Positions 1 to 27,300 of a stretch of DNA of 33,308 nt are shown piece after piece; the first letter of the stretch is position 1, and each line of letters starts with the position of its first letter. Origin of the DNA: an uncultured Nitrospirales bacterium (lineage in GTDB: Bacteria; Hydrogenedentota; Hydrogenedentia; Hydrogenedentales; CAITNO01); the NCBI GenBank assembly GCA_964580415.1, contig CAZOMH010000001.1, forward strand, positions 1-33,308, in the 5' to 3' direction. The notes beneath the pieces were generated by a model that saw nothing but the letters and a program-made list of their open reading frames with translations, searched no databases and was not told the DNA's origin. Both the position numbers and the translations under genes were made by a program.

Positions 1-3000
1 CACGTAGAGCGGTTTTGTGCCGTATCCGGGACTGCTGGCGTCCACCGAAATCTGGTCCTGCCCTTTCATCGGGCCGGACGTTGTCAGTTGGGTTGAGAAC
101 TTCAGCACATACCGCCCGTCGGCACCGGTCCTGACCTCTGCCCGGGGATCACGATCAGCACGGTCGGGACCCTGGTTGCGCCACACGACGATGTGACCCC
201 GGACCAGGGCGTTGGCGATGGGGTTGCCTGAGGCGGCGTCCTTGACTGTTCCCCCAACCGTGACGGCGGTATCGGCAGACGAGATCACCGGTTGGATTGT
301 TTTGGCCTGCCCAGGCGGCGTTTGCGCCGGAGCAAGGGGTGTCATGGAAACATTGTCGAACCACGCCGTGCCCGACCGCACCTCAAGTTGCAGGTAGGGC
401 ATGTCCTTCACCAGCGCAGTGTCCGTGGACCATTGGACGGGTCCCCGCATGCCGGTGCCGTCGTTCAGCGTGACCGCCAGTGTTTGCCTTCCCTGCTCTT
501 CCTGAAGGGTGAGCTCCACGCGGTACCACTTGGCCGGTTCCATGTGGAGCTCGTTGGTGGATTGGCCTTGCGACACCACGCCGCCCGCGGCAACAGGCTC
601 CAGCCCCTTGATCTCGCCGGGCGGGGTGGTGTCGAAGAGGATGAGTCCCGGCGCCTTCCAGCTGGGTTCCCGGCGCACCCCGACCACGCAGGCGGTTTCC
701 GGGTTCCCGCTTTCAAGATACACGTCGAAGGCGATGCGGAAGGGCGGGATAACATTGGTCAAGAGATGCGCCAAAGGCGACCATGTCGGACTGTCCCCGT
801 GCAGCCGCAGCGTGTTGCCGTGCGTCTCCTTGAATGTTGTGTCGTCCACATGGCAGACACTGTGGTTGGTCGCATTTCCATCCGGAATCCAGGAATCGGG
901 CCACGTGTCTTTTCCACCGGCGTGGCGTTCAAAGTCCTCTTTCCGGGAGTCTTGCCGTGCGTCCGGCGGGAGGGCTGCTTGCGCGATACGTTCCTGCCTT
1001 ATGGTCGGACCTGGAGCAGTCGTGGCCTTGGCGAAACTGGTGAGCGCAACGGCGGAGTCATCGGAAAACACGAAGCTCATGTCGCCGTTGGAGGCCTCCA
1101 CGATGGATTTCATGAACTGGAGGCCGTTCGCCTTCGCCATGAAACACCTTGGCGTTGCCGTTTGCGGGGCCGTGTAATCAACCGTCAGCTGCAATCCGGA
1201 CGCACATTTGAACAACGTGACGAGTTCGCCGGCGCCTTCGGCACGAACATCCTCCGGCTTCAGATACACCGCAAACTGTTCTTCTGTCAGGCGTTTCGTG
1301 ATCCGCTCCGGCAGCGCAGCGCGCGCGCCAACCCTGTTTGCAGGTTCGAACGGAAGGTCTTTGGGAATTGCCGGTCCTTCAAACCGAAGCGCCGATTCGC
1401 GCGCGGCCACCAGGAATCCGTAGTCGCGCAGCACAAAACACACCTGCCCGCCCGTCATGTCCGATACGGCCTGCATGATCTCCACCGGGGATTTGCCAAT
1501 CAAACCGTACGGGTTGAGTGTGGCGTCGGTCTGCATGGCGAAGCCCAGTTGGGAGGCGGCCGAAAGCATTTCGACAATCCCGGAGAGTGCCAGTCCAACC
1601 CCGTCACGGTTGTTCGTGATGTTAAGCTGCTGCTGCGACAGCGCCCGGACAACAGATTCCGGAAGGGGCTCCCGTTCGCCTTTCACGCCGTCTTGCACGC
1701 CGGGCGCGAAAGGCGTGTCTGCCGGAATGGCCGCGCCGGGAATGCTCTTTGCCTGCTCAACGCTGGTGGCCATGAGTCCATAGGGAAGCACGATAAAACA
1801 GGCTTTCCCGCCCGACTTGGCAATCAACTCTTCCATGGCCTGCAGCGGGGTTGCCTCCGAAAGGGCAAACGCTTCAAAGTGCGGCAGGTCTTTCCCGACA
1901 GCGGAGGTTTCGGCGGTCATCCACAGCATATCTATCAATTCCTGGAGACTGCTTATGGTGCCGGACATTGTCTTCGTGGAGAGTGCGGCCCGAAGGGTTT
2001 CGGGGAACTCCGGGCGGCCCTGTGCAGTCGGTGAAGAAACTTGGTTGTCCGCGCGAAGTTCCGTTTCCTTGACGGGGTCTGTCTTGTCTTTGGGAGCCGA
2101 CGCCGCAGGCAGGCCGAGCACGCCGATGGCCACGAGCGCGGCGCCTGTGGCCATGCTGAGCCACAGGGTCATGCGCGTGCGTCGTCCGCTCAGGATGCGC
2201 TGGACGCGGCGGTGGAAGTTCGATTCGGCGGCGGCGAAGGTGTTGACCAGCAGCCGGCGGGTGATGCCGCATTTCATCTCGGCCACGCGGGTCAGGCTGT
2301 CGGCATAGGCCGCCGCGCCCGCCCCGTCGGCGTCGCCGTAGGCGGAAACGACCATGTCATCACACGCGGCTTCGGCCTCGCGGCGCATCATCCAGCCGCA
2401 CATCCATACCACGGGATGGAAGAAGAAGAGCATTTCTGCCAGCCGCTGGACAAGCAGCACGAGGTTGTCCCAGCGCCGGGCGTGGGCGAGTTCATGGGTG
2501 ATAATCAACTTGAGCTGCGCCGGGGTGAGCGCGGCGGCCATGGTCTCGGGCAGCAGGATGACGGGGCGGAAAATGCCCGCCAGCACGGGGCCGTGGCACA
2601 CGGTCGTTGTGGCAATGGCCACGCGGCGTCGCATGCGCAGCGTGGCGGACGCTTCGGCCACCAAACCGGCCAGCGTGCCTTCCCGCTGCGTCCGGGCCGT
2701 GCCCCGAAGAAACGCCACATAGGCGCATCCAAGCAGCAGCCGCAGTCCCAGCAGCGACGCGATCAGTCCCCAGGCCAGCATCGCCATCCCGTAGCGGTCC
2801 ACCTGCCGCCAGACGGGCGGTGTTTCCAGTCGCGGCGCAACGGTGGCGGGCGCCGCTTCCGGAAGCGCCGCCGCCGGCAGCGGGAGCGGCGTCTGCGCCG
2901 TCTGCACGACCGTCGGCGGGGGTGTGAAGAAGGCTTCCGGCGCGGGCGGCCATAAGAATGCATACAGCGACAGCGGCGACGCCACGAGGAACGTGAGCAC

Positions 3001-3177
3001 GGGCTTGGCCAGCAGCAGCCCCCAGAACAGGTGGCGCAGCGCCGGCGATTTTACGCGCAGCACATAGAGCGCTATCAGCACCACCCCGGCCAGAATGGCC
3101 AGTTCCATGCTCATGCGGCCCAACTGCGCCACGAGCCACCGGCCCGATTCGTTCAGCAAAAGCATTGCGGAATTCAT
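1..3177 (-). CDS. BlaR1-like M56-family membrane metallopeptidase / signal transducer; the 3' end runs off the left window edge (at least 1059 aa)
   Basis: Absent from the ORF track because no stop codon lies inside the window. Hand translation of the minus strand from ATG 3177 (GGGGAGAA 4 nt upstream, 21 nt after the blaI-like stop) stays open to position 1: MNSAMLLLNESGRWLVAQLGRMSMELAILAGVVLIALYVL... It has N-terminal TM helices and a zinc-peptidase HExxH motif in LKLIITHELAHARRWDN (about nt 2465-2503). A long extracytoplasmic part follows with three similar segments of about 80 aa, ending in a carboxypeptidase-regulatory-like segment (VTVGGTVKDAASGNPIANALV...TGADGRYVLKF). No competing minus ORF is listed in this frame. 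Confidence 0.85.
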   Translation of the reverse strand, partial: MNSAMLLLNESGRWLVAQLGRMSMELAILAGVVLIALYVLRVKSPALRHLFWGLLLAKPVLTFLVASPLSLYAFLWPPAPEAFFTPPPTVVQTAQTPLPLPAAALPEAAPATVAPRLETPPVWRQVDRYGMAMLAWGLIASLLGLRLLLGCAYVAFLRGTARTQREGTLAGLVAEASATLRMRRRVAIATTTVCHGPVLAGIFRPVILLPETMAAALTPAQLKLIITHELAHARRWDNLVLLVQRLAEMLFFFHPVVWMCGWMMRREAEAACDDMVVSAYGDADGAGAAAYADSLTRVAEMKCGITRRLLVNTFAAAESNFHRRVQRILSGRRTRMTLWLSMATGAALVAIGVLGLPAASAPKDKTDPVKETELRADNQVSSPTAQGRPEFPETLRAALSTKTMSGTISSLQELIDMLWMTAETSAVGKDLPHFEAFALSEATPLQAMEELIAKSGGKACFIVLPYGLMATSVEQAKSIPGAAIPADTPFAPGVQDGVKGEREPLPESVVRALSQQQLNITNNRDGVGLALSGIVEMLSAASQLGFAMQTDATLNPYGLIGKSPVEIMQAVSDMTGGQVCFVLRDYGFLVAARESALRFEGPAIPKDLPFEPANRVGARAALPERITKRLTEEQFAVYLKPEDVRAEGAGELVTLFKCASGLQLTVDYTAPQTATPRCFMAKANGLQFMKSIVEASNGDMSFVFSDDSAVALTSFAKATTAPGPTIRQERIAQAALPPDARQDSRKEDFERHAGGKDTWPDSWIPDGNATNHSVCHVDDTTFKETHGNTLRLHGDSPTWSPLAHLLTNVIPPFRIAFDVYLESGNPETACVVGVRREPSWKAPGLILFDTTPPGEIKGLEPVAAGGVVSQGQSTNELHMEPAKWYRVELTLQEEQGRQTLAVTLNDGTGMRGPVQWSTDTALVKDMPYLQLEVRSGTAWFDNVSMTPLAPAQTPPGQAKTIQPVISSADTAVTVGGTVKDAASGNPIANALVRGHIVVWRNQGPDRADRDPRAEVRTGADGRYVLKFSTQLTTSGPMKGQDQISVDASSPGYGTKPLYV

Positions 3178-15768: not shown

Positions 15769-16779
15769 TCACTTCACCTTGTATGCGAAGGAAAACTCGA
15801 ACGGTGTGCCGTCCCGGCGCACCGCCTTGTACAGCGCATACCTGGCCGTGTCGTCCCGGCACTCCTGATTGGGGCGCCCGTCAACGATGGAAGCGTCTTT
15901 GGGCATCTTGTATACGAAGGTGTAGCGGGCTTCCGGGGCGCCCCAGTTGGCCCGCATGCGGACCTTCCACGCATCCCCTTCCTTCTTGGCGAAACGGGCC
16001 AGCGTCAGGCGTTCACGGAGGGTGAAAATCTGTCCGGGCAGAATCTGTTCCGGCAAATGGACAGTGAACTGATAGCTCTTTCCGTCATTCACCAGGTGCG
16101 TTTCGACGGGCAATTCGCGTCCCTTGTCGTCGGTTATCTTGCCGGGATAAATGAGACCCTCCGGTCCCTCCTGGACGGCAAGGCGCTCGGCGTCGCAGTA
16201 GGTGGTGATTTCCGAGGTGGGGAACATGCCGCTCCAGGGAACTTTTATTTCCGAGACAGACTCCGCGGACTCGCTGTCGCCAAGCGTGATGAAGTTTTGA
16301 ATTTCCCCGGCGGGCGGCGGGGGGGGCGGCGGGAACCTGAGAGCCGCCTGCACCGAAACCACGGCCACGACGCACACAACCGCCAGCATCACCTTTCTTC
16401 CGGGAAATCCGGAAGGCTGGAGCACGTCCACAAGCGAATCGGAAGCTCCGGAGCCTGCTTCGAGGGAATCCCGGTCTATGTCTATGCGGAGCAGCTTCAT
16501 TTCCTTCAGCAGCAGCAGCACACGCGGGAGCAGCCACAGCCAAAGGCCCACAGACATCAGGCTCTGCAGAAAGAGGAGGCAGACGATGGCATAGAGCAGC
16601 CACTGCTGCGGATCCGTCTGAAGCTGCCAGCGCGCATACACGAATGCGCAGAGCACGGTCAGGGCCAGGTAAAGCAGCCACAGTTTAACCGCGCGAAACC
16701 GCATCTCGCGCCGAAAGTCGCCCGTGGCCCGGCGTCGAATGTCGGTTATTCGCTGTTTGTCCAATTCGGGACGGTTCAT
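15769..16779 (-). CDS. Multi-pass membrane protein with a C-terminal extracytoplasmic domain; putative cognate anti-sigma/partner of the upstream ECF sigma
   Basis: Track ORF. Its ATG overlaps the sigma gene stop (ATGA, 16776-16779). It has a basic cytoplasmic N-terminus, about 4 hydrophobic helices, a PPPPPPP linker and a C-terminal domain of about 170 aa. No HxxxCxxC zinc anti-sigma motif was seen. Confidence 0.75.
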   Translation of the reverse strand: MNRPELDKQRITDIRRRATGDFRREMRFRAVKLWLLYLALTVLCAFVYARWQLQTDPQQWLLYAIVCLLFLQSLMSVGLWLWLLPRVLLLLKEMKLLRIDIDRDSLEAGSGASDSLVDVLQPSGFPGRKVMLAVVCVVAVVSVQAALRFPPPPPPPAGEIQNFITLGDSESAESVSEIKVPWSGMFPTSEITTYCDAERLAVQEGPEGLIYPGKITDDKGRELPVETHLVNDGKSYQFTVHLPEQILPGQIFTLRERLTLARFAKKEGDAWKVRMRANWGAPEARYTFVYKMPKDASIVDGRPNQECRDDTARYALYKAVRRDGTPFEFSFAYKVK

Positions 16780-17312
16780 GATTGTTCCTCCAAAAGTGTG
16801 CGCAGTCTTTTGCGCGTGTAATGCAGCCGTGAGCGCACGGTCCCCTCGGGTATGCCGAGGATGCCGGCAATTTCGGTGGTGTCAAACCCCTCTTCATACC
16901 GCAGCGAAAGAATGGTCTGGTCGGGCGGACTGAGCCTCTCCATCGCCTCGCGCAGGCTGTCAAAGATTTCCGGGCCGTCCGCGGAGGCCTCCGCGAACTG
17001 CTCGGCATAGCCCTGAATGCCCCTGCGGCGGCGCTGTTCCCTGCGAATCCAGTCGCGGCATTTGTTGCTGACGATCCGGTAGGCCCACCCCGGAAACGCC
17101 GCCGGGTCCTGCAGTGACCCGATCCCGCGCCCAATGCCGATCCAGGAATCCTGCGTCACATCCCACGCCGCGTCCTCCTGCCCCGTGAGCCGGAATGCGT
17201 GATGCCAGAGCCGTTCCTGCCATCGCTCGAACAAACGGTCGAAGGCGTTTGCATCGCCTTCCCGGCAGCCCAGCACGAGGATTTGGTCGGATATTTGATC
17301 GCGGTACTTCAT
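16776..17312 (-). CDS. ECF (group 4) sigma-70 family RNA polymerase sigma factor (178 aa)
   Basis: Track ORF. Region 2 segment: FDRLFERWQERLWHHAFRLTGQEDAAWDVTQDSWI. Region 4 HTH: LSPPDQTILSLRYEEGFDTTEIAGILGIPEGTVRSRLHYTRKRL. Confidence 0.92.
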   Translation of the reverse strand: MKYRDQISDQILVLGCREGDANAFDRLFERWQERLWHHAFRLTGQEDAAWDVTQDSWIGIGRGIGSLQDPAAFPGWAYRIVSNKCRDWIRREQRRRRGIQGYAEQFAEASADGPEIFDSLREAMERLSPPDQTILSLRYEEGFDTTEIAGILGIPEGTVRSRLHYTRKRLRTLLEEQS

Positions 17313-17414: not shown

Positions 17415-17449
17415 GGCCTGACCGGGCCTGCCCCAGACCCGGTCAGGCC
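17415..17449 (-). other. Perfect 12-bp GC-rich hairpin between the sigma-fusion gene and the ECF sigma gene
   Basis: GGCCTGACCGGG (17415-17426) pairs with CCCGGTCAGGCC (17438-17449) around an 11-nt loop, 16 nt after the stop at 17465. There is no U-tract on the minus strand. Confidence 0.6.
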
Positions 17450-17464
17450 AACCCCGTTTGGGGG

Positions 17465-20400
17465 TTACTCATCCGTCGCCCCGGGTGTGCTTGGGGCGCT
17501 GTCCACTGTTGGGGTTTCCGCCGCGACGGCTGCACCCGGCGTTTCGAAATTCACCTGTACCACCGTTTCCTCGTTCGCCAGCACCTGCGCCTCCACCACC
17601 TTTTCACAGACGGCGGGGCCGTATGCCTCCAGCGCTTTCATGCGCACGCGAAACTGAACAGAACCTGGAGGCAAGTAGCCAGCATGAAAGGCTTGCGCTT
17701 GCGAGCCCGCACCCACTGGGGCTTGAACCGTGACGCCGTTATCCGTCCGCCATTCTGCTTTCACGGTGTAGTCGTTCTGCAAGGTTGAGGCATCCGTGAC
17801 AGGCACGCCGTCCAACACGACATTGACCACCGCCGTTCCGGTTTCGCTTATCCTGCAGACCACCGTGGCGGGTGCGGTAACCGTTCCGCGCCAGATATGG
17901 GGACTGTTGAGCGTCTTGGAAACAAGCAGGTCGGATTCGGTGCCGGCGCCGCATTTCCCGCCGGAGAAACGGCCGGTCTCGTCGGTCGTCAACGTTTCTT
18001 CGCAGCACCGGACGGTGTAGCCCGCCAAGGGAGCGCCGTTGGCATCGACCACGGTTCCTTCCACCGTGGCGGCGGGTTGAAGAACGACTTCCACCGGGCA
18101 ATCATATTCGGGGCCGTCCAGACGTTTACTGAAGCGACCATACCCTTCTGCGATCACTATCAGCGTGGCAGGCGGTGCGAATGTCCCGGGGAGATCAAAC
18201 GCACCGGAAGCGTCCACCACGTCTTTCCCGCTTGCTGTGGAGGTCCACAGCGAAATGTTGTACGCCGTGACCGGCGCGCCGGAAGTGTCCACCACGCGTC
18301 CGTACAGGCGCCGCAACGAACGAAGTGTGAAGACCTGTTCTCCCTTGTCCAGCGGACAGTCATGGCTGTCTGCAGTGTATCCCTCGGCGTTGAAGCTGAG
18401 CTGTGCTTCAGTGCCGAAGGTTTCCAACGCCAGGCTGAACCGGCCGTTTCGGTCTGTCTTTACGGGAGTTGGCCCCACGCTGTAACAGTTCACATCGCAT
18501 TCCGGAATGGGCTGTCCCGCCTCGTTGATGACCGTGCCCGACACCGTGTACTTCTTGGGGGCCTCAAATTCCAGTCGAAGTCCCGTACGCTGTTCTCCCG
18601 GCTTCAGGGTGATCTTCTCCTTGTTCGTGAAGTTCCGGTTCTTGCCGCCGGTTTGGCCCAACGAGAACCAGTATTCTCCCGGAACCAGTCCGGTGAGGGA
18701 GAATTCCCCGTTGGGACCCACTGTGACCATCTGGTTTTCGTACAGAGAGGTCCCGTAATCACCCTTGGTCTCTTCGCAGTTGAGGCAAACCCCGCAATAC
18801 AGGCCCAAGCCCACCGGAGGTTCCCCATCCGTGATCACGACCACGCCCGACAGCGCGCCGTTGCATTGGTAGGACAGTTTCAGATTCGCCTCCGTGTCGC
18901 GCCCCGGAGCAAGTTCCACCATTTGCATGCCGCGCTGTCCGTCTTTCTCCGCCGTCAGCCGCACGGGCTGTTCCGTGCAGACACAGCGCACATCAAAACG
19001 CCCATCATCGCCGGTGCGGGTCAGCACCTCGGCATAGGCTCGCAACTCAATTCCGGCCAAGGGGGCACCGGTTGCGTCCGTCACGATGCCATGCAGGCGC
19101 GTACGGTCCACGCGCAGGTCCAACCGGGTCTCTCCTGTCTGTATGTCGGCGTTCCATTCCGGTTTTGCCGCCATGTTGGAATAGAGGCTGCCGGAGTTAT
19201 AAGTCCATGCACCCTTTCCGCCGGGCACCAATGGGCCGTGAACCTGCAATGGGTGTTTGCCCTTGGGCAGGTTGTCGAAGCGGTAACGGCCGTCGATGTC
19301 GGTCTCCACGGATGGCACCATGTATTCCAGGAAAGTGCTTACTTCAATCCCCGCCCACAGCGGCTCGCCCGTCTGTGCGTCCACGACCTGGCCGAATAGA
19401 ACCTTTGCCTGTTCCACGCGGATGGTGGTGGTGCTCTCTTTGCCTGCGGTCACGTCCACATTGACGGGTAGGGGCATGACCCAACCGGACTTCTCTGGCA
19501 ATTTGGCGCGGTACTGGGCTCCGGGCACGGCCTCCGCCAGAAACATCCCGTTCCGGTCCGTGGTGACGGTTTGTACGATACGCCCGTCGTTAAGGATCAT
19601 TTCCCGGCCCCACAGCATGCCCAGATGCCGGTAATTGCCCGTCAGGAAACGCAAGGTAACGCCCTCGGGGCCGCCGGTCATGCCATCGGCCACCACGCGG
19701 CCGCGAATCCGGCCGGGCGGCGGCAACTGAATGCGTATCCCCTCGCCGGTCCTCACATAGTCCGTGTAGCGGGGTAGGCCGCCGGGGATGGCCACGAAAT
19801 ACTTCACGCCCCCCTCCAGCATGCTGTCGAATCGGAAATGTCCCTCGGCATTGGTCTGCGCGCGGTTGGCGGCCCCTTCCGCATGGGACACCTCTTCGGG
19901 CGGAAGCAACTCATGCCCGGCCACATACAGAATCGCATTCGGCACGGGCGCGCCCGTTTCGTCCACCACCACGCCCGAACAGGGCGCGCAGGGAAACACC
20001 AGTTCCTTGCCGCCCGGGGGCGGAGCCACGCCGTTTTCAATGTGCAGTGTGCCGCCACCGCCGCCCAGGTCGCTCCAGGCCGCTATGGACCAGTCTCCGT
20101 CGGGCACGTGCTCAACCACGATATTTCCCTTGCCGTCCGCTTTGCCGTACCGTTTTTCGGTCTGTGCCGGGGGCATCTCATTGGGTGCCCAGGTAATCTT
20201 TTCCAACATCACATCGGCCTCGCCGACCATGCCGCCGAACATGCCCTCCAGCCTTCCACGGACCGTCACCCCGCCTTCCAGGGCGGGTTCCGCGTTCTGC
20301 GCAATGGCGTCGGCTGTGGTGGACTTCGCGGGAGTTGATGGGGCCTGCGGTTTGGCCGGCGTCTTTGGAAAGCGCTTGCGAAATTCGCTCTTTGCCATTG

Positions 20401-21202
20401 TCATGGGGATGCTCTTGAGCAGCACCATGTTGCGCTTCACAATGCCGGGCAGGAACGAATAGCCCACGCCGGCCACAAGGGTCAGCACGACCGCCGTGAT
20501 CAAAGCCTTCGCGGCAAAGCCCATTGAAGCCCCGGCCGCGGCACCCGTTCCGGTGCCGGCGGTAAAGCCCGAAACCGCGATCTTGCCCAGTGACGCGGCC
20601 AGCGCGGCCGGCACGGCCGGCGCCGCCACGGCGTGCTCCGTCAGCAGCAGCGTGAGTGCGGCGACGCTGCCCACGGTCACGCCTTTCTTGATCAACGAAC
20701 TGCGCACTTCCTCCACCCCCTGGTGGACGCGCTTTGTGATGGCCTGTCGCGAGAGTCCCGCGGCATTGGCCAGTTCGATGTGGGTTTTCCCCTCGAAGAA
20801 ATGGCCCACCACGGCCTGACGGAGTTCATCGGGAAGCAGCGCGACGGCCTCGTCCACAAGGCCGGATATGTCGTCCCAGCCAAACGCCGCCGCCTCCGAC
20901 GTGACCTCGCGGGCCAGTTCGGATTCATAACGGTTGCGCGTCTTGGTTTTGCGGTACCGGTCAATGGCCCGGTGTACCGCCGTGCGGTGCAGCCATGCAC
21001 CCAGCGGCGACTCGGGCACGCGCTCCAGTTGCGACAGGGCCAGGAAGGCGTCAAGCGCCGCCTCCTGCGCATCGGCATCGTTGCGCAGCACGCGCAAACA
21101 GGCCCCATAAACCAGTCCGGAATACTGGCGAAGAATGCCGTGAAAGGCTTCCTCGTCGTGGCGGCTAATCCACCGTGCCAGCATTGCATGTTCGTTTGTC
21201 AT
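17465..21202 (-). CDS. ECF-type sigma factor domain fused to a transmembrane region and about 900 aa of repeated carboxypeptidase-regulatory-like beta-sandwich domains (1245 aa)
   Basis: Track ORF 17465..21370 trimmed to ATG 21202 (GGGGAG upstream; MTNEHAMLARWISRHDEEAF...). The sigma part has region 2 (FHGILRQYSGLVYGACLRVL...AQEAALDAFL) and region 4 (LPDELRQAVVGHFFEGKTHIELANAAGLSRQAITKRVHQG). Hydrophobic segments follow (ALTLLLTEHAVAAPAV..., ALITAVVLTLVAGVGYSF). After that come about 9 repeats of the type xGxVVDxxGAPxxxAxV...TDxxGRFxF. Confidence 0.85.
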   Translation of the reverse strand: MTNEHAMLARWISRHDEEAFHGILRQYSGLVYGACLRVLRNDADAQEAALDAFLALSQLERVPESPLGAWLHRTAVHRAIDRYRKTKTRNRYESELAREVTSEAAAFGWDDISGLVDEAVALLPDELRQAVVGHFFEGKTHIELANAAGLSRQAITKRVHQGVEEVRSSLIKKGVTVGSVAALTLLLTEHAVAAPAVPAALAASLGKIAVSGFTAGTGTGAAAGASMGFAAKALITAVVLTLVAGVGYSFLPGIVKRNMVLLKSIPMTMAKSEFRKRFPKTPAKPQAPSTPAKSTTADAIAQNAEPALEGGVTVRGRLEGMFGGMVGEADVMLEKITWAPNEMPPAQTEKRYGKADGKGNIVVEHVPDGDWSIAAWSDLGGGGGTLHIENGVAPPPGGKELVFPCAPCSGVVVDETGAPVPNAILYVAGHELLPPEEVSHAEGAANRAQTNAEGHFRFDSMLEGGVKYFVAIPGGLPRYTDYVRTGEGIRIQLPPPGRIRGRVVADGMTGGPEGVTLRFLTGNYRHLGMLWGREMILNDGRIVQTVTTDRNGMFLAEAVPGAQYRAKLPEKSGWVMPLPVNVDVTAGKESTTTIRVEQAKVLFGQVVDAQTGEPLWAGIEVSTFLEYMVPSVETDIDGRYRFDNLPKGKHPLQVHGPLVPGGKGAWTYNSGSLYSNMAAKPEWNADIQTGETRLDLRVDRTRLHGIVTDATGAPLAGIELRAYAEVLTRTGDDGRFDVRCVCTEQPVRLTAEKDGQRGMQMVELAPGRDTEANLKLSYQCNGALSGVVVITDGEPPVGLGLYCGVCLNCEETKGDYGTSLYENQMVTVGPNGEFSLTGLVPGEYWFSLGQTGGKNRNFTNKEKITLKPGEQRTGLRLEFEAPKKYTVSGTVINEAGQPIPECDVNCYSVGPTPVKTDRNGRFSLALETFGTEAQLSFNAEGYTADSHDCPLDKGEQVFTLRSLRRLYGRVVDTSGAPVTAYNISLWTSTASGKDVVDASGAFDLPGTFAPPATLIVIAEGYGRFSKRLDGPEYDCPVEVVLQPAATVEGTVVDANGAPLAGYTVRCCEETLTTDETGRFSGGKCGAGTESDLLVSKTLNSPHIWRGTVTAPATVVCRISETGTAVVNVVLDGVPVTDASTLQNDYTVKAEWRTDNGVTVQAPVGAGSQAQAFHAGYLPPGSVQFRVRMKALEAYGPAVCEKVVEAQVLANEETVVQVNFETPGAAVAAETPTVDSAPSTPGATDE

Positions 21203-21461
21203 GGCGTCATCTCCCCGTGATTGTACTTGGGTGTGTTTTCCTGGTCCACCGTTAATACGCATGGCGCGGCATGTCGGCCACCGGGGGGGGGCAGGGCGGC
21301 GGAATTTGGACTGCGGCGGCAGAGCGCAGCGGCGACACCGCTTTGCTCCATGGAGGATGTGCGCTCGCAATGTCCCAATACTTGGTGTACGCTATGAACA
21401 ACTTCGCCGGCACCGGCGCGGCGTCCAATCAAGAAGGTGTTTCAACGAAAGGGATACCCGG

Positions 21462-23728: not shown

Positions 23729-23757
23729 TTGATTGGATTTCCGTGGCGCGATACAAT
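23729..23757 (+). promoter_or_regulatory. Putative sigma70-type promoter of the mcrBC-like operon
   Basis: TTGATT (23729-23734), 17-nt spacer, TACAAT (23752-23757). The SD AAGGGGG (23771-23777) and ATG 23782 follow. Confidence 0.5.
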
Positions 23758-23781
23758 CCATTCACTCAGAAAGGGGGCGCT

Positions 23782-26247
23782 ATGAGCTTCTCGTGGATTC
23801 CGATATACAGGGAATTGGCACAGGCGGTTCTGGCATACCAAGACCGCCAAGAGGATCTTCTGAACATACTGCGGGCGGCAAAACAAAAAGGGCTGCCGGT
23901 CATGTCAATACCGGATGAGGGTCCGCATCTGCGACAAGGTATTGATCCATTCTCCTTTTTTGCAGCATTCAACCGGGGGCAAACCCATTCAAATCGGCGG
24001 GAGATAATCGCGTACTTTCAGGACCGTCTTGGGCTCCAGACACAAACCCCGATTGACTTCGACGGCATACCCACAGCTGACAACAGAAGCTCGTTCTTCT
24101 TCTCGGCCAAGTCCGAGACCATGCAGGAGGACCTCCTCACCCTGTGGACTATGGCCTCGGAAGCATACGGAAAACGGGCGGAAGAAGTTTCTTCTGCGCT
24201 ATTCGACAAATGCCTGGGCATAAAAGGGATATCCGCGACCAATCTGACCATGGGGTGTTTCTGGATCAACCCGGAAGGATTTCTGGCCCTGGATGGCACC
24301 AATCGCGCATATTTCCCGCAGGAATTCAACATAGAATTGGGCGCGCGCAACCATACCGAATATGTCGCCCTGTTGGGCAGGGTGCATGAAGCTAGTCAGG
24401 ATTCCTACGCAGATATTTCGCTCGCAGCGTGGAAGTGGAGCAAATCGGTGCAATACTGGACGTTCACACCCGGTCGCAATGGATCAGAATGGGAAAGGTT
24501 TGTGCGGGAGGGGGTTATGGCGATTGACGAGCCTATTGGCGATCTCCTTGGTTGTCCCACGAAGGACAGAATCAAGAATGAATTACGCACGGCCACGGAA
24601 AAAGACTGGCCGTTCACAGTTCGTGCGCATGCATGCTGGGACTTCTCAAGAATCATTAAGCCAGGTGATGTCGTTTTTGCCAAGAAAGGATACTCGGAGG
24701 TTCTTGGTTACGGCATTGTCAGGGGTGACTATCGTCATGATCCAAGCCGCGATGACCACGCACACATTCGGGATGTCGAATGGCATGTACAGGGCGGACA
24801 TCTGGGGGAAGAGGGGGCAACGAAGCCTGCTTTTGCGGTCAAATTTCTGACGAACATTACACCCTGGCCTGACTTTGTCAAGGAGTTCTGTCTGTTGACG
24901 GGTTATGATCCGGGCAATTTGCGCAAATATTACTGGTTAAATGCAAACCCCAAAATCTGGTCATTTGAGAGCGTCATGGTGGGCGGGGAATGCACGTACA
25001 CCTCCACAAATGAACTGGGAAACAAGCGCAACAGATACAAGTGTTTTCAGGAGGCGCGACCGGGCGACATTCTCATTGGCTATGTGACCACGCCAAAGAG
25101 GGCCATCACGGCCATCTGTGAGATTACCAAGAGTTTGCATGCATCGGATGATGGCGAGGTCATTGCCTTCAAGAAGATCCGAAATGTCGCGGCGCCCGTG
25201 ACCTATGACGAGCTAAGGACAGACCCGGAAATTGCTGAAAGCGAACCCCTGAAAAGCGCCCAAGGAAGCCTTTTCAAGCTAACACAGAGCGAGTATGAGC
25301 ATGTCCTGAGAATGATAGACGAAAAGAATCCTGCCGAAACCGACCCGCCTGAACCACCGATTCCCTACACCGTGGACATGGCCATGGACGGTCTGTTTAT
25401 GGCGCGGCATGATTTTGAGGGGATTCTTGGGGCTCTGCGGGAGAAACACAATATCATCCTTCAAGGCGCACCCGGTGTTGGAAAGACCTTTGTGGCGGGG
25501 CGTGTCGCGTACGCGCTGATTGGGGAAAAGGCCAAAGACCGGGTCGAAATGATCCAGTTTCACCAGTCCTATTCGTACGAAGACTTTATCCAGGGGTACA
25601 GGCCCGTCTCAAACGGCGAACATCTGAAGTTCGAATTGAAAAATGGCGTGTTCTACAGATTCTGCCAGCGCGCTATTCAGAATCCGGAAAAGAACTTTGT
25701 GTTCATAATCGACGAGATCAACCGAGGCAACCTGAGCAAGATATTTGGCGAGTTGATGATGCTGATTGAACACGACAAGCGGGGAGATGAGTTTGCCGTG
25801 CCCTTGACCTACGGCGAAGGCAATCAAGCGCCGTTCTACGTTCCCAAGAATCTCTACCTGATAGGCATGATGAACACCGCAGACCGCTCTTTGGCGATGG
25901 TTGACTACGCCCTTCGCCGTCGTTTCCGTTTTGTCGAAATTGAACCGGGATTTGAAACAGAGGCCTTTCGCGCGCACCTGACCCAAACCAAGGGCGCATC
26001 GGCGGCATTGGTTCAGAAGATCATTGACCGCATGTCCGCTGTAAACGCGGATATCGCCGCCGACAACAAGAACCTGGGTCGCGGGTATCGTATAGGCCAC
26101 AGCTTCTTTTGCCCGGTGGACGGGTTGCACCCTGATGAGGACTGGTACGCGCGTGTTATCAAGAACGAAATTGTTCCCCTCCTGGAAGAATACTGGTTCG
26201 ACAATCCGGAGAAGGTGGAACGACACCGGGAAAGGCTGCTTTCCTAG
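23782..26247 (+). CDS. mcrB: McrB-like AAA+ GTPase subunit of a modification-dependent restriction system, with an N-terminal extension of about 530 aa (821 aa)
   Basis: Track ORF 23743..26247 trimmed to ATG 23782, because the -10 box lies inside the GTG-initiated extension. C-terminal motifs: Walker A GAPGVGKT (25465-25488), Walker B FVFIIDEINRGN, the McrB signature MNTADRS, and ALRRRFRF. N-terminal part: residues ~1-222 unrecognised, then ~223-375 and ~383-512 each look like PUA/EVE-type small beta-barrels. Confidence 0.9.
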   Translation: MSFSWIPIYRELAQAVLAYQDRQEDLLNILRAAKQKGLPVMSIPDEGPHLRQGIDPFSFFAAFNRGQTHSNRREIIAYFQDRLGLQTQTPIDFDGIPTADNRSSFFFSAKSETMQEDLLTLWTMASEAYGKRAEEVSSALFDKCLGIKGISATNLTMGCFWINPEGFLALDGTNRAYFPQEFNIELGARNHTEYVALLGRVHEASQDSYADISLAAWKWSKSVQYWTFTPGRNGSEWERFVREGVMAIDEPIGDLLGCPTKDRIKNELRTATEKDWPFTVRAHACWDFSRIIKPGDVVFAKKGYSEVLGYGIVRGDYRHDPSRDDHAHIRDVEWHVQGGHLGEEGATKPAFAVKFLTNITPWPDFVKEFCLLTGYDPGNLRKYYWLNANPKIWSFESVMVGGECTYTSTNELGNKRNRYKCFQEARPGDILIGYVTTPKRAITAICEITKSLHASDDGEVIAFKKIRNVAAPVTYDELRTDPEIAESEPLKSAQGSLFKLTQSEYEHVLRMIDEKNPAETDPPEPPIPYTVDMAMDGLFMARHDFEGILGALREKHNIILQGAPGVGKTFVAGRVAYALIGEKAKDRVEMIQFHQSYSYEDFIQGYRPVSNGEHLKFELKNGVFYRFCQRAIQNPEKNFVFIIDEINRGNLSKIFGELMMLIEHDKRGDEFAVPLTYGEGNQAPFYVPKNLYLIGMMNTADRSLAMVDYALRRRFRFVEIEPGFETEAFRAHLTQTKGASAALVQKIIDRMSAVNADIAADNKNLGRGYRIGHSFFCPVDGLHPDEDWYARVIKNEIVPLLEEYWFDNPEKVERHRERLLS

Positions 26248-26256
26248 CTGCTCTCA

Positions 26257-27300
26257 ATGACTCCCATCCCCATACAGAACATCTATTATCTGCTCTGCTA
26301 CGCTTGGGACAAACTGGCCGAGCGCGACATGGTATCCGTGGATACGCTTCCCTCCACGGACTTGGTAAATCTCTTTGCGCGGGTACTCATAAACGGCACG
26401 CAACTCCTCCTGAAACGCGGTCTGGACCGCAGTTACCTGTGCCAGGAAGAGTGGACATCCCGACTCCGTGGTCGGATTGGTTTTGACGAGACAGCTGGGG
26501 GACGCACTCATACCAGCGGGATACTCTCCTGTCGCTACGATGAAATGAGCCATGACATTCTGCACAACAGGATATTGAAGACCACGCTTGCCTCACTGGT
26601 ATGCATACAGGGCATGGAAGAGGAGAACATTCAAAGACTTTCCGGGCTTCTGAGACACCTTTCGGGTATTGGTCAGATCAGACTCAACGACAGAGTCTTT
26701 GGCGATGTGCGTCTCAATCGAAACAACCGGTTCTACGAATTCCTGATGTGCATCTGTGAGATTGTTTACCAGAATCTGTTGATTTCCGAAAACGGCGGCA
26801 AGGCCAGATTCAGGGATTTTGTCCGCGACGAAAAGCAAATGGCAAGTCTTTTCGAGGGCTTTGTCAGGAATTTCTATCGAACTCATGCTGCGGACAGATA
26901 CAAGAAAATAGGCCGAGAACAGATTCGCTGGCGGCTGAAGCCAGTTGAGGCGGGTTCGGCAGGATGGCTCCCAAAAATGGAGACGGATATCACCCTCACC
27001 TCAGACGTTCGCAAAGTCATTATCGACTGCAAGTACACGGCGCACATATTTCAGAACCATTTTGACAGCAAAACATTCAGGTCCGGGCATATGTACCAAG
27101 TCCATTCATACTTGGCCAATCTGCCGCAGGAGACTTTTGACAAATACGCGGATATCTCAGTCTTATTGCTTTATCCTGCGGTAACTGCGGAACATGCCCA
27201 CGAGTTTATCGACCCAAGGGGGTATCATTTCGGTATTCATACGATTAACCTTGCACAAGATTGGACGAAAATTCATCGCGATCTGCTTGCTTTGGTGTAA
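26257..27300 (+). CDS. mcrC: McrC-like endonuclease subunit (PD-(D/E)xK nuclease)
   Basis: Track ORF, 9 nt after the mcrB-like stop. N-terminal IQNIYYLLCYAWD is typical of McrC. Nuclease core: METDITLTSDVRKVIIDCKYT (D...DxK). Late MYQVHSYL. Confidence 0.88.
   Translation: MTPIPIQNIYYLLCYAWDKLAERDMVSVDTLPSTDLVNLFARVLINGTQLLLKRGLDRSYLCQEEWTSRLRGRIGFDETAGGRTHTSGILSCRYDEMSHDILHNRILKTTLASLVCIQGMEEENIQRLSGLLRHLSGIGQIRLNDRVFGDVRLNRNNRFYEFLMCICEIVYQNLLISENGGKARFRDFVRDEKQMASLFEGFVRNFYRTHAADRYKKIGREQIRWRLKPVEAGSAGWLPKMETDITLTSDVRKVIIDCKYTAHIFQNHFDSKTFRSGHMYQVHSYLANLPQETFDKYADISVLLLYPAVTAEHAHEFIDPRGYHFGIHTINLAQDWTKIHRDLLALV

Follow-up and report, generated by a model that had tools for sequence, protein, structure and literature searches.

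The gene at positions 17465..21202 (reverse strand, stop codon included) of the 33,308-nt stretch of DNA analysed here, hereafter the window, encodes a membrane-tethered extracytoplasmic function (ECF) sigma factor of 1245 aa. The window comes from a metagenome-assembled genome (MAG) of the uncultured phylum Hydrogenedentota, and the protein joins sigma regions 2 and 4, a conserved Ala-rich linker, one transmembrane helix and about ten beta-sandwich domains in a single chain. It is one paralogue of a large family that has expanded throughout this phylum, in which the sigma-linker-membrane part is constant and the sandwich arrays vary. We are highly confident of this architecture and of the family membership. 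We further propose, with moderate confidence, that the protein combines sigma factor and sensor in one polypeptide, with the N-terminus in the cytoplasm and the C-terminus outside (N-in/C-out), and that it is held at the membrane until regulated proteolysis frees it.

One uninterrupted gene joins sigma factor, membrane anchor and stalk

The reading frame is open without a break for 1245 codons, from an ATG (MTNEH...) at 21202 to the stop codon at 17465. An alternative longer frame with a TTG start extends to 21370; the relatives do not use this start. Nearly all close relatives begin with MTNEH, 7 nt after a conserved GGGGAGA Shine-Dalgarno sequence (21210-21216; this and all other parts of the gene and its upstream block lie on the reverse strand). 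With residues 1-330 as the query and length limits taken from the whole protein, ten close relatives were retrieved; their N-terminal 330 residues are 70-81% identical to those of our protein, their lengths are 1237-1258 aa, and all have the same domains. Altogether, more than ten relatives within this length range show this architecture. An earlier reading of this DNA, made from the sequence only, had described a single 1245-aa open reading frame joining sigma, membrane and repeat parts, and had named a frameshift or a missed stop codon as what would overturn it. The gene proved to be intact, and a frameshift artefact is excluded because conserved full-length relatives exist.

The N-terminal part is an ECF sigma factor

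Sigma region 2 comprises residues 3-102 (20897..21196), with DAQE at 44-47 and the WLHRTAVHRAIDRYRK segment; it was delimited by Pfam Sigma70_r2, an AlphaFold2 (AF2) model, alignment to SigW and invariant residues. Region 4, with the helix-turn-helix for the -35 element, comprises residues 109-172 (20687..20878), as judged by Pfam r4/r4_2, TIGR02937, AF2 and Foldseek. Sigma70_r2 matched residues 24-87 with 34.5 bits (cut-off 24), and the NCBIfam model TIGR02937 (sigma70-ECF) matched residues 18-168 with 53.3 bits (cut-off 42.9). The two Pfam models of region 4, r4 and r4_2, matched residues 115-167 with 21 bits, slightly under the cut-off. Neither an r3 nor an r1 domain was matched in the Pfam/NCBIfam scan of the protein, which has sigma2 and sigma4 only, the composition of ECF (group 4) sigma-70 factors. 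By sequence, the nearest solved protein in a HMMER alignment is B. subtilis SigW (5wuq, E 4e-11).

For residues 1-300, which AF2 modelled with 89 family sequences as input, the predicted local distance difference test (pLDDT) score was 92-98 for the sigma2 helices (3-102) and 91-97 for sigma4 (90-98 for both domains overall). The Foldseek neighbours of this model were ECF sigmas exclusively, and sigma4 superposed with a root-mean-square deviation (rmsd) of ~1 Å on sigma4/-35 DNA and sigma4/anti-sigma structures (3hug, 2h27). The core-binding motif of region 2.2, DAED in the family consensus, reads DAQE here (residues 44-47) and aligns to EAED of SigW, and the region 2.3/2.4 residues W70, L71, D81 and R84 are invariant in the alignment of relatives. 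With a putative acidic, DAED-like core-binding motif and the conserved residues of regions 2.3/2.4, the protein qualifies, as far as its alignment tells, as an ECF sigma factor. The complete ECF sigma with regions 2 and 4 that had been read from the sequence is thus borne out by Sigma70_r2, TIGR02937, pLDDT values above 90 and Foldseek. Sigma, linker and transmembrane helix together are also the best-conserved part of the protein, with 73-80% identity over the N-terminal 300 residues versus 44-76% over the ectodomain (301-1245).

A conserved linker leads to a single transmembrane helix

Four segments connect sigma4 to the stalk. The first is an Ala-rich, conserved cytoplasmic linker of two amphipathic helices (residues 174-215, 20558..20683; GVTVGSVAALTLLLTEHAVAAPAVPAALAASLGK), recognised by alignment, AF2 and hydropathy. 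It is followed by a flexible Gly/Ala-rich tether (residues 216-230, 20513..20557), defined by its composition and by pLDDT values below 50 at 212-229, and by a single transmembrane helix (residues 231-253, 20444..20512; AKALITAVVLTLVAGVGYSFLPGIV) with the helix-weakening residues G245 and P252, assigned from hydropathy, AF2 and alignment. The fourth is a basic juxtamembrane segment (residues 254-300, 20303..20443), KRN..LLK..P....FP and then a variable Pro/Ala/Lys spacer, delimited by alignment and AF2, which places short helices at 252-262 and 268-277.

Only the third segment is hydrophobic enough to span the membrane. Its Kyte-Doolittle hydropathy peaks at 2.13, AF2 models a helix at 231-250, and G245, L251 and P252 are invariant among close relatives. 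The linker reaches only ~1.5-1.6 and contains invariant E189 and H190 as well as prolines. In close relatives its pattern GVxVxxxAALxLLLxEHAxAAPAVPAALAASLGK is nearly invariant; an 'AAPAxLxAxLGK' motif is retained across the family, and planctomycete-type fusions have an 'AAVPAAL' version of it. Among the more distant family members, 76 of 79 have no transmembrane-grade window (19 residues with a Kyte-Doolittle value >= 1.6) in the linker, and 3 of 79 have one. AF2 predicted linker helices at 177-191 and 199-210 with pLDDT values of 53-61, followed by the disordered segment 212-229. The set of transmembrane segments assumed in the sequence-only reading was therefore rejected: hydropathy peaks only at 231-253, and the linker, with E189/H190 and its prolines, is amphipathic.

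Three lines of evidence bear on the orientation of this helix. Among 148 family members, the mean net charge of the 15 residues before the helix is +1.03 versus -0.47 for the 15 residues after it, and the charge before exceeds that after in 68%; these flanking charges favour N-in/C-out family-wide. Distant homologues in which the linker motif recurs are fused to modules that are typically periplasmic, namely TlpA-like thioredoxin, S41 peptidase or CarboxypepD_reg. From family charge bias, fused domain types and the structural neighbours of the stalk (see below) we infer an N-in/C-out topology. With a cytoplasmic sigma and a single transmembrane helix, the stalk would therefore lie outside. Cysteine enrichment, considered as a sign of extracytoplasmic location, found no support across the family: cysteines make up 0.56% of the C-terminal part versus 1.06% of the N-terminal part.

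The C-terminal part is a stalk of about ten beta-sandwich domains

According to Pfam, AF2 and Foldseek, the stalk (17546..20269) consists of ~10 prealbumin-like/CarboxypepD_reg beta-sandwich domains, with approximate residue ranges of 312-388, 405-492, 497-584, 589-698, 700-775, 782-880, 883-960, 964-1041, 1043-1117 and 1122-1219. The Pfam family CarboxypepD_reg (PF13620) scored 175 bits with seven significant stretches and CarbopepD_reg_2 71.7 bits, and the repeated sandwich shows the PF13620 signature GxVxDxxGxP...TDxxGxF. For residues 301-1245, AF2 gave an all-beta model with about ten seven-stranded sandwiches, a mean pLDDT of 79 and a predicted template-modelling score (pTM) of 0.57. About nine CarboxypepD_reg-type repeats had been counted from the sequence; the domain type stands, and the count is close to the ~10 of the AF2 model.

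The last conserved strand, VNFETPG, is followed by a disordered, Pro/Ala-rich acidic tail (residues 1220-1245, 17468..17545) that ends in PGATDE, as seen in AF2 (pLDDT <50, residues 925-945 of the model) and in the alignment; 'NFETPG...PG(A/V)TEE' is conserved at the C-terminus of close relatives. In Foldseek, the stalk matched nothing but surface or secreted proteins built of several sandwiches, among them bacterial alpha-2-macroglobulin, Gram-positive pilins, SdrD and TIE. Foldseek returned no specific structural analogue but only such generic multi-sandwich proteins, with TM-scores <=0.29. The length and variability of the stalk suggest that it binds envelope or external macromolecules.

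The protein contains no known anti-sigma domain

Neither a ZAS nor a FecR anti-sigma domain was found in the protein with Pfam and NCBIfam; in the Pfam scan, FecR/DUF4880 gave no match at E<=1, and zf-HC2 gave none. Residues 170-260 contain neither Cys nor HxxxCxxC, and the sole Cys within residues 1-260 is C35. Comparison of family loci revealed no conserved partner or anti-sigma-like neighbour gene. The neighbours are a GH106 gene and an ECF pair here, uracil-DNA-glycosylase (UDG) and histidine kinase genes in two other Hydrogenedentes loci (L014 and L015), and serpin, type II secretion system and other genes elsewhere. This lack of a conserved partner gene fits a self-contained device. The sequence-only reading had spoken of no separate anti-sigma. 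This holds in so far as neither a recognisable domain nor a partner gene was found, and is better worded as no known anti-sigma domain.

A cis-acting regulatory role is possible for the linker (174-215), which is the most conserved element outside the sigma domains and is common to planctomycete-type tethered ECFs. The AF2 model contains no compact sigma2/sigma4 clamp; its rmsd is 12 Å to RNA polymerase-bound sigma forms and 21-24 Å to anti-sigma-bound forms.

The gene belongs to a family expanded in Hydrogenedentota

With residues 1-260 as the query, HMMER found the sigma-linker-transmembrane module in 994 protein clusters (E<=1e-30) among 1.84 billion cluster representatives. Nearly all of the best 150 of these 994 clusters align over sigma, linker and transmembrane helix, with lengths of 258-1419 aa (median 910). 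Among 50 sampled clusters, Sigma70_r2 was present in all 50 and CarboxypepD_reg arrays in 39. Where family members bear organism names, these are always Hydrogenedentes, Hydrogenedentota or Hydrogenedentales, and 30 of 61 genomes sampled from Hydrogenedentota contain the module at the same threshold. One closed 7.9-Mb genome has 20 separate module loci, mostly frames of 600-1400 aa, and the incomplete MAG of the window has three copies. The protein is thus no rarity.

Close relatives are located on contigs of Candidatus Hydrogenedentes lake MAGs, one of which has several copies. Two of these form a full-length tandem pair on the same strand (L014:2974-6702 and L014:6989-10735), each gene preceded by the conserved upstream block described below; this pair is direct evidence of expansion via local duplication.

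More distant homologues are planctomycete-like sequences with 27-33% identity that keep the 'AAVPAAL' linker and the transmembrane helix. In five such tethered ECFs (P0020, P0021, P0024, P0017 and P0022), the 'AAVPAAL' linker follows sigma4, and the ectodomains are TlpA-like thioredoxin, S41 peptidase or WD40. Overall, the C-terminal modules of planctomycete-like homologues are WD40, TlpA-like thioredoxin, S41 peptidase or CarboxypepD_reg. From these alignments, the linker-transmembrane module looks like an old, portable adaptor that joins sigma cores to varied sensor parts.

A conserved upstream block carries an ECF-like promoter motif

The ~85 nt before the ATG (21203..21288) are conserved in seven loci, and the DNA farther upstream is unrelated among them. 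Besides the Shine-Dalgarno sequence, this block contains an ECF-like bipartite motif, GTGGCC (21276-21281), 16 nt and CGTA (21256-21259), with the spacing of ECF promoters, and a sigma70-like TGGACC-17-TACAAT (21220-21248). In the coding strand of the gene, nine consecutive C (window 21283-21291) abut the 5' edge of the -35-like element; this tract is shorter (C7 in L011) or missing in relatives and hence is not a conserved feature. RNA structure in the 5' untranslated region was rejected as the cause of the upstream conservation (-6 kcal/mol, 0 compensatory pairs).

The 29-nt upstream pattern occurs only twice in the genome. The second copy, with one mismatch (CGT to CGC), lies at C194:1340-1368 (locus L022) and is either a leftover from a lost paralogue or the promoter of a target gene. 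It adjoins a UDG gene, and a secreted FGE-sulfatase-like protein is encoded ~290 nt downstream; in other Hydrogenedentes genomes (L014, L015), the position next to the UDG gene is occupied by a tethered-sigma gene.

The exact motif type of the close relatives had no match in the closed genome with 20 copies (G022), where only a looser family motif was found. Gibbs sampling revealed this related motif (..CCGGCGnYGTC.. and then TATA/GTAnAAT) upstream of the 20 paralogues, in most of them 54-84 nt before the start, with 2 of the 20 sites far outside this range. Its information content was 16.3 bits versus <=12.4 bits in eight shuffles, and motifs of this type were also present at three further family loci from other metagenomes. 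This pattern of upstream motifs looks like that of autoregulated ECF genes.

Proposed mechanism and alternatives

The sequence-only reading had left two options, proteolytic release of the sigma domain or action at the membrane, and we accept these as the two to be weighed. In the model that we favour, the N-terminal ECF sigma (sigma2 and sigma4) would reside in the cytoplasm, connected through the two-helix Ala-rich linker and the Gly/Ala tether to one transmembrane helix, and ~10 beta-sandwich domains (~950 residues) would project into the periplasm or cell envelope. In the resting state, the membrane tether, perhaps aided by the conserved linker, would keep the sigma unproductive. A signal on the stalk (ligand binding, damage or unfolding) would lead to exposure to a site-1 protease, and the remaining stub would undergo an intramembrane cut by an RseP-type site-2 protease. 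The freed sigma would then join RNA polymerase and direct transcription at ECF-type promoters, among them probably that of its own gene. We infer the cleavage, the autoregulation and the signal.

Site-2 protease substrates require helix-destabilising residues, and the invariant Gly and Pro in the transmembrane helix would fit such a substrate. The same genome encodes an RseP-like M50 protease (214.9 bits) and two S41 proteases. The precedent is IutY, the only fused sigma with a demonstrated mechanism, which is trimmed by Prc and released by RseP (PMC5411451, PMC8999054), and whose truncations are constitutively active (PMC5411451). Release by proteolysis has likewise been predicted for ECF48/52/53 (PMC8999054).

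Several points weigh against this model or parts of it. RseP and S41 proteases are near-universal, as controls showed, and their presence is therefore weak evidence. After site-2 cleavage the sigma would keep an Ala-rich C-terminus, which could make all of it a target of ClpXP. In the AF2 model, the linker helices (pLDDT 53-61) are not docked on sigma2 or sigma4, so that cis-inhibition via the linker is unsupported. The clade of our protein is strongly basic just after the transmembrane helix (KRN..LLK...RKRFPK), with eight K/R in 263-300, and by the positive-inside rule these residues argue against a C-terminus outside. Finally, a genome scan with a position weight matrix of the low-information upstream motif was barely above column-shuffled controls (118 versus 48-74 matches), and since it does not separate from the controls, no regulon could be defined.

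The best-surviving alternative, though an unlikely one, is that the sigma is active while tethered: the holoenzyme would form at the membrane by means of the ~60-residue linker, much as regulators of the ToxR/CadC type bind DNA there, and the stalk would modulate it allosterically or through clustering, with no proteolysis. The disordered tether (212-229 in AF2) and the long linker would permit this, there is no anti-sigma-like domain that would need to be destroyed, and after intramembrane cleavage a fused sigma would presumably bear a hydrophobic, degron-like tail. However, no membrane-active sigma factor is known, the invariant Gly/Pro of the transmembrane helix match a site-2 protease substrate, and IutY, the sole characterised fused sigma, requires both Prc and RseP (PMC5411451, PMC8999054).

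The basic residues after the helix also feed a second, quite improbable alternative, in which the linker helix at ~175-194 is a first transmembrane segment and 231-253 the second, so that both termini are cytoplasmic and the array is a regulatory extension like those of ECF41/42/57. In this clade, IKKG precedes the first hydrophobic stretch and KRN...RKR follows the second, as in a positive-inside two-span hairpin, and the hydropathy of 175-193 is borderline at 1.54. The invariant E189/H190 and the prolines of the linker speak against such a span, as does its transmembrane-grade hydrophobicity in just 3 of 79 members; moreover, the family-wide charges favour a single N-in/C-out span, and the domain types and structural neighbours are extracytoplasmic.

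It is less probable again that the main role of the protein is structural or in the envelope, and that its sigma-like N-terminus is a pseudo-sigma that no longer functions in transcription and serves only as a cytoplasmic anchor or interaction module. Region 4 falls slightly under the Pfam cut-off, DAED is altered to DAQE, and with as many as 20 paralogues in one genome there would be a risk of promoter cross-talk. Yet conservation within the protein is highest in the sigma part, TIGR02937 is above its cut-off, both domains have pLDDT values above 90 with a ~1 Å match to DNA-bound sigma4, and a conserved ECF-like promoter motif lies upstream. An assembly or frameshift artefact in which two genes, one for a sigma and one for an anti-sigma or surface protein, were joined has a negligible probability: the source MAG is fragmented (1008 contigs, 71.8% complete), but the same continuous architecture occurs in independent assemblies and genomes, closed ones included, and in the tandem copies of L014.

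Genomic neighbourhood

The divergent upstream neighbour encodes a GH106-like hydrolase (rhamnosidase), and no TonB-dependent receptor is encoded among the neighbours in the window. Sequence reading revealed a perfect 12-bp GC hairpin without a U-tract 16 nt past the stop codon (17415..17449, reverse strand). It is probably where the transcription unit ends or has its boundary; the terminator scan did not pick it up. Farther downstream, on the strand of the tethered sigma gene (15769-17312), an ECF sigma of standard type (178 aa, only 20% identity to the fused sigma) has a stop codon that overlaps the start of a gene for a 336-aa membrane protein without a Pfam match. The two are probably an unrelated sigma/anti-sigma pair, and a GGAACC box is present at about 17365, upstream of the gene for the 178-aa sigma.

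The contig end truncates a BlaR1/M56-type membrane protein of >1059 aa at the edge of the window (1-3177, reverse strand). Between its M56 domain and the start of a CarboxypepD_reg stretch at 971-1029 lie ~640 residues without Pfam matches. The sequence-only reading had this protein end in the same kind of domain as the tethered sigma, a weak claim given that CarboxypepD_reg is below threshold there (E 0.001, 19.8 bits versus 32.3) and that BLASTP found nothing significant as a domain common to both proteins. Of that reading as a whole, the sigma, the anchor and a large, probably extracytoplasmic array in one conserved polypeptide stand, whereas the several transmembrane segments do not and the BlaR1 link is weak. 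The window also contains a McrBC-type module (23743-27300, forward strand; McrB with AAA_5 and EVE domains, and McrC) with a GC content of 0.52 versus about 0.63.

Implications

Genes of this family are currently annotated only as 'sigma-70 family RNA polymerase sigma factor', a label that conceals the membrane-sensor character of the 1245-aa protein. The family offers hundreds of natural variants of one design (sigma, conserved linker, one transmembrane helix and modular stalk) and raises the questions of how a covalently tethered sigma is released or activated and how a signal is transmitted along a repeat array. For this uncultured phylum it may be a major signalling system, and it may also supply orthogonal, self-contained sensor/sigma parts.

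As a speculation in which we place little confidence, Hydrogenedentota may rely on massively duplicated one-protein trans-envelope sensors, up to ~20 per genome, each with its sigma wired to a stalk of ~30-40 nm. If this were true, such a stalk could span the periplasm and report contact at the outer membrane or cell surface, or the binding of particular polymers. Variable stalks would confer ligand specificity, and a family-typical ECF promoter would produce an autoregulated, possibly cross-talking network. In that case, the divergent GH106 rhamnosidase would be a candidate target, much as ECF/anti-sigma pairs control polysaccharide-utilisation loci in Bacteroidota.

Comparison with known systems

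Fused 'one-component' sigma factors have been recognised bioinformatically, and a mechanism has been demonstrated for IutY only (PMC8999054). Of the known systems, IutY and ECF52 come nearest to our protein. It resembles IutY of Pseudomonas putida, an ECF243 sigma/anti-sigma hybrid, which has an N-terminal cytoplasmic ECF sigma, a single transmembrane helix and a periplasmic C-terminal part (PMC5411451, PMC8999054). The same layout is found here in one chain, with a presumably cytoplasmic sigma, a transmembrane helix and a presumably extracytoplasmic C-terminal part. The extension of IutY, however, is a FecR-type anti-sigma domain that acts with a TonB-dependent receptor, whereas our protein has no FecR/DUF4880 domain and no adjacent receptor gene; its extension measures ~1070 aa with ~10 beta-sandwich domains, and it comes from a different phylum.

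An ECF sigma is likewise connected through transmembrane helices to an extracytoplasmic part in ECF52 SCO4117 of Streptomyces coelicolor and in ECF48/ECF53 (PMC5826349, PMC8999054). In ECF52/48/53 this part is a Pro-rich spacer with a binding domain, carbohydrate-binding in SCO4117, and proteolytic activation has been proposed (PMC5826349, PMC8999054). These groups are actinobacterial; their anti-sigma domain is of the zinc-finger (ZAS-like) kind, and their extensions reach at most ~400 residues. In contrast, our protein has no ZAS HxxxCxxC between sigma4 and the transmembrane helix, a different, Ala-rich linker and a far longer array.

The planctomycetal ECF57 (formerly ECF01-Gob) is similar in being multi-copy, with a sigma core and variable, independently acquired extensions (PMC8999054, PMC7671368, PMC7826278). 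Its sigma2 and sigma4 each contribute one Cys to a pair (PMC8999054) that is absent here: the sigma4 motif reads VVGHFFEG in our protein and LCYLEG or VCRRVL in planctomycete-type matches. The WD40-fused planctomycete-type relatives share only 27-33% identity with our sigma module, and ECF57 is discussed as being regulated by WD40 protein interaction, whereas CarboxypepD_reg arrays dominate the Hydrogenedentota family. With SigW-RsiW and sigmaE-RseA, our protein shares SigW as the nearest solved sigma, the proposed logic of site-1 and then site-2 (RseP/RasP) cleavage, and the presence of an RseP homologue. In these systems a separate anti-sigma protein wraps sigma2 and sigma4, whereas the tether here is covalent and no such domain was detected.

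The idea of sensor and transcription factor in one polypeptide, put forward from the sequence, thus applies to this protein, but the principle is not new, as IutY, ECF48/52/53 and ECF57 demonstrate (PMC8999054). Our search of the literature available to us found no account of ECF sigmas fused to CarboxypepD_reg arrays, no description of a Hydrogenedentota expansion of tethered ECF sigmas and no fused extension of this size (~1070 aa versus up to ~400 in ECF48/52/53). We conclude that the general design, a sigma and a sensor in one protein, is known, and that what appears to be new is this large Hydrogenedentota family with its CarboxypepD_reg arrays.

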